64,000 nt of DNA, taken from the NCBI RefSeq assembly GCF_003334785.1, contig NZ_QOWV01000010.1, one strand, 5' to 3'. A model generated the notes under the pieces. The model worked only from the letters and a program-made list of their open reading frames with translations, did not search any database and was not told where the DNA came from. The stretch's first letter is position 1, and every line of letters begins with the position of its first letter. The position numbers and the translations under genes are program-made. Shown piece by piece: positions 60,379 to 60,566 of the stretch. The stretch is from Escherichia coli. GTDB taxonomy: Bacteria; Pseudomonadota; Gammaproteobacteria; Enterobacterales; Enterobacteriaceae.

Positions 60379-60512
60379 CTTAGATATCCTTATAAAAGAC
60401 GATATTTCATTATCGGTAAATTGGCTTTGCGGGAAATCTCCGGTTACGGACGTAAAGATATAATCTTTTTTAAAACAATGAATTAAAAAATTAAGCTGCT
60501 TATTTAATTTTC

Positions 60513-60528
60513 TGGCACGACGGTTGCA
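60513..60528 (+). promoter_or_regulatory. Sigma54 (-24/-12) promoter of rtcBA: TGGCAC-N5-TTGCA
   Basis: Read directly: TGGCACGACGGTTGCA about 40 bp upstream of the rtcB start, canonical GG-N10-GC spacing. Confidence 0.88.
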
Positions 60529-60566
60529 ATTATCAGGACAGCAAACAACGAAAAGAGAAAAACAAA

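Follow-up and report, generated by a model that had tools for sequence, protein, structure and literature searches.

The RNA-repair system rtcR–rtcBA of Escherichia coli is said to have been published by Genschik, Drabikowski and Filipowicz in 1998, and the rtc locus, its sigma-54 promoter, its CARF-type activator and its repair enzymes have been known and studied since that year. The dependence on sigma-54 and RtcR, the repression by CARF, the activating signal and the existence of both an upstream activator sequence (UAS) and an IHF site are all given by the literature. In brief, rtcBA is expressed from a sigma-54 promoter activated by RtcR (PMC5175333; PMC9650030; both citing Genschik et al. 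1998). The CARF domain represses RtcR (PMC9650030), and the reported activating signal is 5′ tRNA halves that end in a 2′,3′-cyclic phosphate and are bound by CARF (PMC7790460). RtcA and RtcB are also needed for activation of RtcR, and both bind CARF (PMC9650030). For the Salmonella rsr promoter, TGGCACGCTGGTTGCAAT, binding of sigma-54 by chromatin immunoprecipitation on microarrays (ChIP-chip) and sigma-54-dependent activity have been reported (PMC3844500).

Here we analysed positions 60379–60566 of a 64,000-nt stretch of E. coli DNA (contig NZ_QOWV01000010.1; the whole stretch is hereafter the window), the 188-bp gap that separates the divergent open reading frames (ORFs) of rtcR (start at 60378, minus strand) and rtcB (start at 60567, plus strand). 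We are highly confident that the gap carries the sigma-54 promoter of rtcBA under control of the divergent CARF-type activator RtcR, and our analysis found no counter-evidence to this assignment of promoter and activator. The locus is the native E. coli rtcR/rtcBA divergent control region, intact and ordinary. A first-pass annotation made from the letters alone had proposed this divergent layout, and the two ORF starts indeed bound the gap exactly. Positions 56300–64000 differ from the chromosome of the laboratory strain E. coli JCL301 by one mismatch in 7701 nt (99.99% identity), and the RefSeq annotation of that chromosome places glpD, glpE, glpG, a DeoR/GlpR-family regulator, rtcR, rtcB, rtcA and malT in the same stretch. 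A 351-nt query spanning the gap was present in 4857 of 5426 complete E. coli genomes, many at 100%, and all of these were annotated rtcR/rtcB.

Sigma-54 promoter and transcription start

The promoter CTGGCACGACGGTTGCA (60512–60528, plus strand), which can be written CTGGCACG-ACGG-TTGCA, carries GG at −25/−24 and GC at −13/−12, with the two dinucleotides exactly 10 bp apart, and it ends 38 nt before the rtcB ATG on the rtcB strand. Its parts, TGGCAC (60513–60518), GACGG and TTGCA (60524–60528), are as the first-pass annotation had described them. A scan of both strands with TGGCAC-N5-TTGCA, the consensus scan proposed in that annotation, yielded this single zero-mismatch match in the 64-kb window. 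The longer pattern YTGGCACG-N4-TTGCW also matched once, at 60512–60528, against 0.00 matches expected from 100 dinucleotide-preserving shuffles. The promoter was invariant in nine Escherichia sequences and three other enteric genera, with flanking bases that vary, and the invariant block in the Escherichia and enteric alignments extended over 60506–60534. Moreover, a scan of a genome collection provided 18 full-length RtcR loci, ranging from Escherichia species to Pseudomonas, Accumulibacter, Iodobacter, Calditrichia and Desulfovibrionaceae, and 17 of them had a −24/−12 element on the divergent strand, 127–197 nt from the rtcR start codon. The sigma-54 promoter that had been read upstream of rtcB (60513–60528) is therefore exact, unique and conserved in orthologous loci. 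The epithet 'textbook' that had been attached to it suits its sequence but not its strength, since in vitro the native rtcBA promoter is reportedly very weak (PMC9650030). The same source explains the inhibition seen in multicopy by the promoter on the plasmid titrating RtcR (PMC9650030).

The reported weakness, together with the existence of non-productive sigma-54 sites in E. coli (see PMC4551910), would fit a scheme in which rtcBA is transcribed mainly by sigma-70 and the sigma-54 motif is non-productive or a chance match. We consider this very improbable. A sigma-70 scan of 60100–60800 on both strands found no sigma-70-like promoter around the gap, and the sigma-54 motif is exact where none is expected by chance, stays unchanged amid varying neighbour bases and accompanies a divergent activator gene in all but one of the 18 loci. 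The published RtcR dependence (PMC5175333) contradicts sigma-70 transcription, and the sigma-54 dependence of the Salmonella ortholog (PMC3844500) also speaks against it. Because the sigma-70 scan was empty, the promoter of rtcR itself could not be placed. A terminator scan gave a single terminator-like match, at 60663 inside rtcB, which is at chance level.

In vitro, ApC has served as the −1/+1 primer on the native promoter (PMC9650030), and no AC other than A60538–C60539 is suitably spaced from the −12 GC; we therefore infer that transcription of rtcBA starts at C60539, which would give rtcB a 28-nt leader (60539–60566, plus strand). Both the leader, AACAACGRAA...GRGAA, and the ATG were conserved in the Escherichia and enteric alignments.

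RtcR and the repair enzymes

The activator gene rtcR (58780–60378, minus strand) is a 532-amino-acid ORF that is annotated as rtcR by RefSeq in near-identical DNA. Its product matched the full-length model NCBIfam NF038308 over residues 1–527 with 852 bits against a cut-off of 650. Residues 2–185 matched Pfam PF06956 (RtcR; E = 1.4e-85) and residues 187–354 the sigma-54 interaction AAA+ domain PF00158 (Sigma54_activat; E = 9e-51), which holds the Walker A motif GPTGAGKS at 215 and, at 265, the GAFTGA loop. A helical domain at the C terminus, from about residue 470 to 532, is a candidate for DNA binding. A PDB sequence search with RtcR matched only the AAA+ domains of other activators and returned no solved RtcR N-domain, and the fold of that domain was therefore examined on a predicted structure model. 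On this model the N-terminal sensor domain (residues 1–186, encoded by 59821–60378, minus strand) is a CARF fold and not a receiver, GAF, PAS or V4R domain.

A receiver domain is found in many sigma-54 activators such as NtrC, ZraR, GlrR and AtoC, and the models of these four proteins were the next-best NCBIfam matches to RtcR, yet over the AAA+ part only. The chance that RtcR is a two-component response regulator with a phosphorylatable N-terminal receiver is practically nil, as the Pfam domain search, in which Response_reg had no match in RtcR even at E ≤ 10, and the fold comparison have already refuted it. This reading and that of a sigma-70 promoter are both effectively excluded. The first-pass annotation had judged by eye that the N terminus did not look like a receiver and had pointed to the known CARF-type domain; the domain search that it suggested, with PF06956 found and the receiver absent, agreed with the former, and the predicted model with the latter.

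The ligase gene rtcB (60567–61793, plus strand; 408 amino acids), for RNA 3′-phosphate/2′,3′-cyclic-phosphate ligase, encodes a protein with an end-to-end match to Pfam RtcB (E = 1e-133). None of the NCBIfam RtcB models matched at cut-off, which reflects the models and not a defect of the gene. The cyclase gene rtcA (61797–62813, plus strand; 338 amino acids), for RNA 3′-terminal phosphate cyclase, encodes a protein scoring 780 bits with NCBIfam NF003247 (cut-off 333). RtcB H337 and RtcA H308, the residues mutated in PMC5175333, were both present. As read in the sequence of the junction, rtcA lies directly downstream of rtcB in the same orientation, and a second in-frame rtcA ATG at 61794, immediately after the rtcB TAA stop, makes the ORF 338 or 339 amino acids long. 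Because RtcR, RtcB and RtcA pass the profile checks, the catalytic residues are in place and the genes abut, the complete RNA-repair module of activator, ligase and cyclase that had been claimed here stands, and judged by its sequence it is apparently functional.

Candidate RtcR enhancer next to the rtcR start codon

The 175 nt upstream of the rtcB ATG confer RtcR-dependent reporter activity, and a UAS of rtcBA is drawn in Fig. 1 of the same paper (PMC5175333). The rtcBA UAS and the rtc IHF site are also mentioned in PMC9650030. According to a review of 2016, the sequence of the RtcR enhancer was not known (PMC4987338), and a computational RtcR profile proposed with SigmoID (PMC4888284) was published as a logo image only.

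Alignments of Escherichia and other enteric sequences revealed three conserved blocks, the promoter, a block adjacent to rtcR and the leader, with variable DNA between them. The rtcR-adjacent block consists of about 37 conserved nt adjoining the rtcR start codon (CTTAGATATCCTTATAAAAGACGATATTTCATTATCG) and is invariant in Enterobacteriaceae. Within it we identified, by comparison across species, a candidate RtcR enhancer in the form of an array of GATA/TATC half-sites at 60383–60415, which is −156 to −124 from the inferred start. The array is made up of GATATC (60383–60388), TTATA (60390–60394) and the dyad CGATA-TTTCAT-TATCG (60400–60415), so that the core CGATA-N6-TATCG lies at −139 to −124. 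This is the only GATA-N6-TATC in the window. In a less-redundant set of 14 loci, of which four are enteric and two come from close Pseudomonas, 37 GATA/TATC half-sites fell within 65 nt of the rtcR ATG against 10.7 ± 3.2 in shuffled sequences (maximum of 26 in 2000 shuffles), and the next 65 nt away from the ATG contained 4. A GATA-N6-TATC or TATC-N6-GATA dyad occurred near the rtcR ATG in 8 of these 14 loci, with 0.06 expected. The 175-nt reporter fragment corresponds to 60392–60566 and thus contains the CGATA-N6-TATCG dyad and excludes GATATC.

From these comparisons we lean, by somewhat more than an even chance, towards the array at 60383–60415 being the RtcR enhancer, and the candidate appears to be conserved from enterics to Pseudomonas and Accumulibacter. 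Since it overlaps the ribosome-binding region and leader of rtcR, RtcR bound there may also autoregulate its own gene. Several observations weigh against the assignment. Several of the 14 loci are related, and the shuffle statistics therefore overstate independence and significance, although the dyad pattern is still common to at least four lineages. The deltaproteobacterial loci have GATA/TATC half-sites without the N6 dyad, and one E. coli strain has CGAGA as its left half-site. Furthermore, the motif is A+T-rich and lies less than 40 nt from the rtcR ATG, so its conservation could partly reflect promoter, leader or ribosome-binding signals of rtcR.

Taken to its end, the last point would make the conserved block at 60383–60415 a set of rtcR sigma-70 promoter, leader and ribosome-binding signals, or the operator of another regulator, and RtcR would then have its true sites in another part of the region, such as 60439–60450. 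The block does adjoin the rtcR start codon, it holds the Shine–Dalgarno complement TCCTT (60388–60392), and its minus strand has the −10-like hexamers GATAAT and TATAAG. The 12-nt element TCCGGTTACGGA at 60439–60450 is found as the perfect palindrome TCCGTTTACGGA, invariant, in eight other Escherichia sequences, and its position, −100 to −89, is also a plausible distance for an enhancer. We nevertheless find this alternative unlikely, if still one to be reckoned with. The N6-spaced dyad symmetry recurs beside rtcR in Enterobacteriaceae, Pseudomonas and Accumulibacter, over which distance an ordinary promoter or leader would not persist, and the empty sigma-70 consensus scan of 60100–60800 speaks against an rtcR promoter in the block. 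The palindrome TCCGTTTACGGA was not conserved in the other enteric genera aligned, being absent from Klebsiella, Intestinirhabdus and Superficieibacter despite near-identical RtcR DNA-binding domains, and in this window G60443, a base of its lineage, breaks one arm. As an enhancer candidate the palindrome was ranked lower for these two reasons, its absence from other enterics and its imperfection in this window, and the GATA/TATC array is retained as the preferred site.

The first-pass annotation had also suggested a search for repeated RtcR sites near 60400–60500. A repeat search of 60330–60620 gave no more than inverted repeats that were short, A+T-rich and imperfect, plus a single 14-nt direct repeat (60472–60485/60561–60574, 86% identical), and none of these was convincing by itself; the dyad at 60400–60415 came to light only when species were compared. 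CGATA-N6-TATCG went unreported by the repeat search because its arms are shorter than the seed.

IHF-like site between candidate enhancer and promoter

The candidate enhancer and the promoter are separated by a tract of 86% A+T (60455–60511), which is likely to be a bendable or looping region. Inside this tract, at 60473–60485 on the plus strand (−66 to −54), AAACAATGAATTA differs by one mismatch from the IHF consensus WATCAANNNNTTR, and its distance to TGGCAC is 40 nt. Five beta- and gammaproteobacterial loci (L007–L011) have a perfect IHF consensus at a corresponding place, 41–42 nt upstream of TGGCAC, and Superficieibacter (L018) has one 30 nt upstream of it. One-mismatch IHF matches are common in the window, however, with 62 found against 47 expected, which counts against the site. 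Weighing its position against this, we regard 60473–60485 as probably an IHF site.

Proposed mechanism

The features described above allow us to propose how the region may work. RtcR would be made from its own leftward promoter and kept inactive by its N-terminal CARF domain, while sigma-54 holoenzyme would wait in a closed complex at 60512–60528. RtcR would sit on an enhancer beside its own start codon, in our proposal the dyad array at about −156 to −124, and IHF and the A+T tract would bend the intervening DNA, so that looping could let RtcR contact the sigma-54 RNA polymerase. RNA damage, in the form of tRNA fragments with 2′,3′-cyclic phosphate and with RtcA and RtcB also required, would lift the CARF block and allow the AAA+ domains to oligomerise. 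ATP hydrolysis would then open the promoter, and the transcript would run from about C60539 through rtcB into the abutting rtcA. The parts of this scheme that we infer here are the bases forming the UAS, the exact transcription start and the possible autoregulation of rtcR. What is new is a concrete proposal for the bases bound by RtcR, together with the positional conservation of the IHF site, and a defined RtcR site would aid those who build Rtc reporters as well as models of Rtc-dependent antibiotic tolerance.

Neighbouring genes and variation of Rtc loci

On its far side, rtcR is convergent with glpR (58040–58798, plus strand), and the 3′ ends of the two genes overlap by 19 nt (58780–58798). 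The sole difference from JCL301 is at position 59692, the third base of rtcR codon 229, which is G here and T in JCL301.

In Intestinirhabdus and Superficieibacter, the promoter and rtcB are separated by rsr and two to three YrlA Y-like RNAs. The leader and ATG of rsr in these two relatives match up, base for base, with those of E. coli rtcB (60539–60569), and this alignment suggests that in E. coli a deletion removed rsr-yrlBA and so brought rtcB directly up to the rsr promoter. An Rfam search of 56000–64000 (E ≤ 1) gave no match, with neither a Y-like RNA nor a leader element. Klebsiella oxytoca has a short remnant of the rsr start, with rtcB beginning about 130 nt after it, and its loss of rsr looks like an independent one.

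The control region was missing from about 10% of the complete E. coli genomes. In one case (L022) a deletion has taken away all that lies between the 3′ parts of rtcR and rtcA (about 58873–62673), with a 7-nt overlap at the junction, and in 566 genomes rtcR and rtcA remnants lie close together. Because of this deletion and these adjacent remnants, we conclude that the Rtc module is dispensable and has been lost in part of E. coli. In E. coli AMSCJX03 (L023), IS1B replaces the intergenic region, the rtcR start and the 5′ part of rtcB (the equivalent of about 60358–61330), and rtcB is annotated as a partial pseudogene.

Other loci vary in what follows the promoter. The first gene is rtcA and not rtcB in two of them (L013 and L014). 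Two loci of Desulfovibrionaceae (L016 and L019) encode RtcR-like proteins of 41–43% identity with a divergent CARF domain that are not beside rtcB or rtcA. The ORF that follows the divergent sigma-54 promoter in L019 is 574 amino acids long and has a dinucleotide-binding (GxGxxG) motif near its N terminus, as a putative flavoprotein might, and such loci suggest that CARF-type activators have been recruited to other targets. Last, in Pseudomonas sp. GD03944 an Rfam tRNA match of 60 bits (2637–2709 of locus L009) lies just downstream of the rtcR-divergent sigma-54 promoter; this element may be a genuine tRNA controlled by RtcR, or it may belong to a Y-like RNA as its tRNA-like module.

Relation to known systems

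The closest described system is rtcR–rtcBA of E. coli K-12 (Genschik 1998; Engl et al. 2016; Kotta-Loizou et al. 2022), and the locus studied here is that very one, alike in its genes, its promoter and its neighbours, with glpEGR on one side and malT on the other. Nothing of substance differs between the two, and the lineage of the window has G60443. The rsr-yrlBA-rtcBA operon of Salmonella Typhimurium likewise has an orthologous divergent rtcR, the same activator and CARF sensing, and its rsr −24/−12 element is near-identical (TGGCACGCTGGTTGCAAT in Salmonella and TGGCACGACGGTTGCAAT in E. coli). Unlike the Salmonella operon, that of E. coli has neither rsr, which encodes a Ro60 homolog, nor the YrlA and YrlB Y-like RNAs.

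In the NorR–norVW and PspF–pspA systems, as in this window, the activator gene is divergent from its target. Enhancer dyads lie between the two and overlap the upstream region of the activator gene, which is also the position of the candidate dyads here. IHF-assisted looping brings the activator to a −24/−12 promoter in both, as in the scheme that we propose. The sensor domains differ, with GAF-iron in NorR, none in PspF and CARF in RtcR, and the NorR enhancer, GT-N7-AC (PMC4987338), differs from the RtcR candidate.

The CARF effectors of type III CRISPR systems (Csm6, Csx1, Can2, Cad1 and Csa3) share only 7–16% sequence identity with RtcR. The reported ligand of RtcR is not a cyclic oligoadenylate but a tRNA fragment that ends in a cyclic phosphate (PMC7790460), and cyclic oligoadenylates do not activate E. 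coli RtcR according to PMC9650030. In contrast to the nuclease of the CRISPR CARF effectors, the effector part of RtcR is an AAA+ transcription activator.
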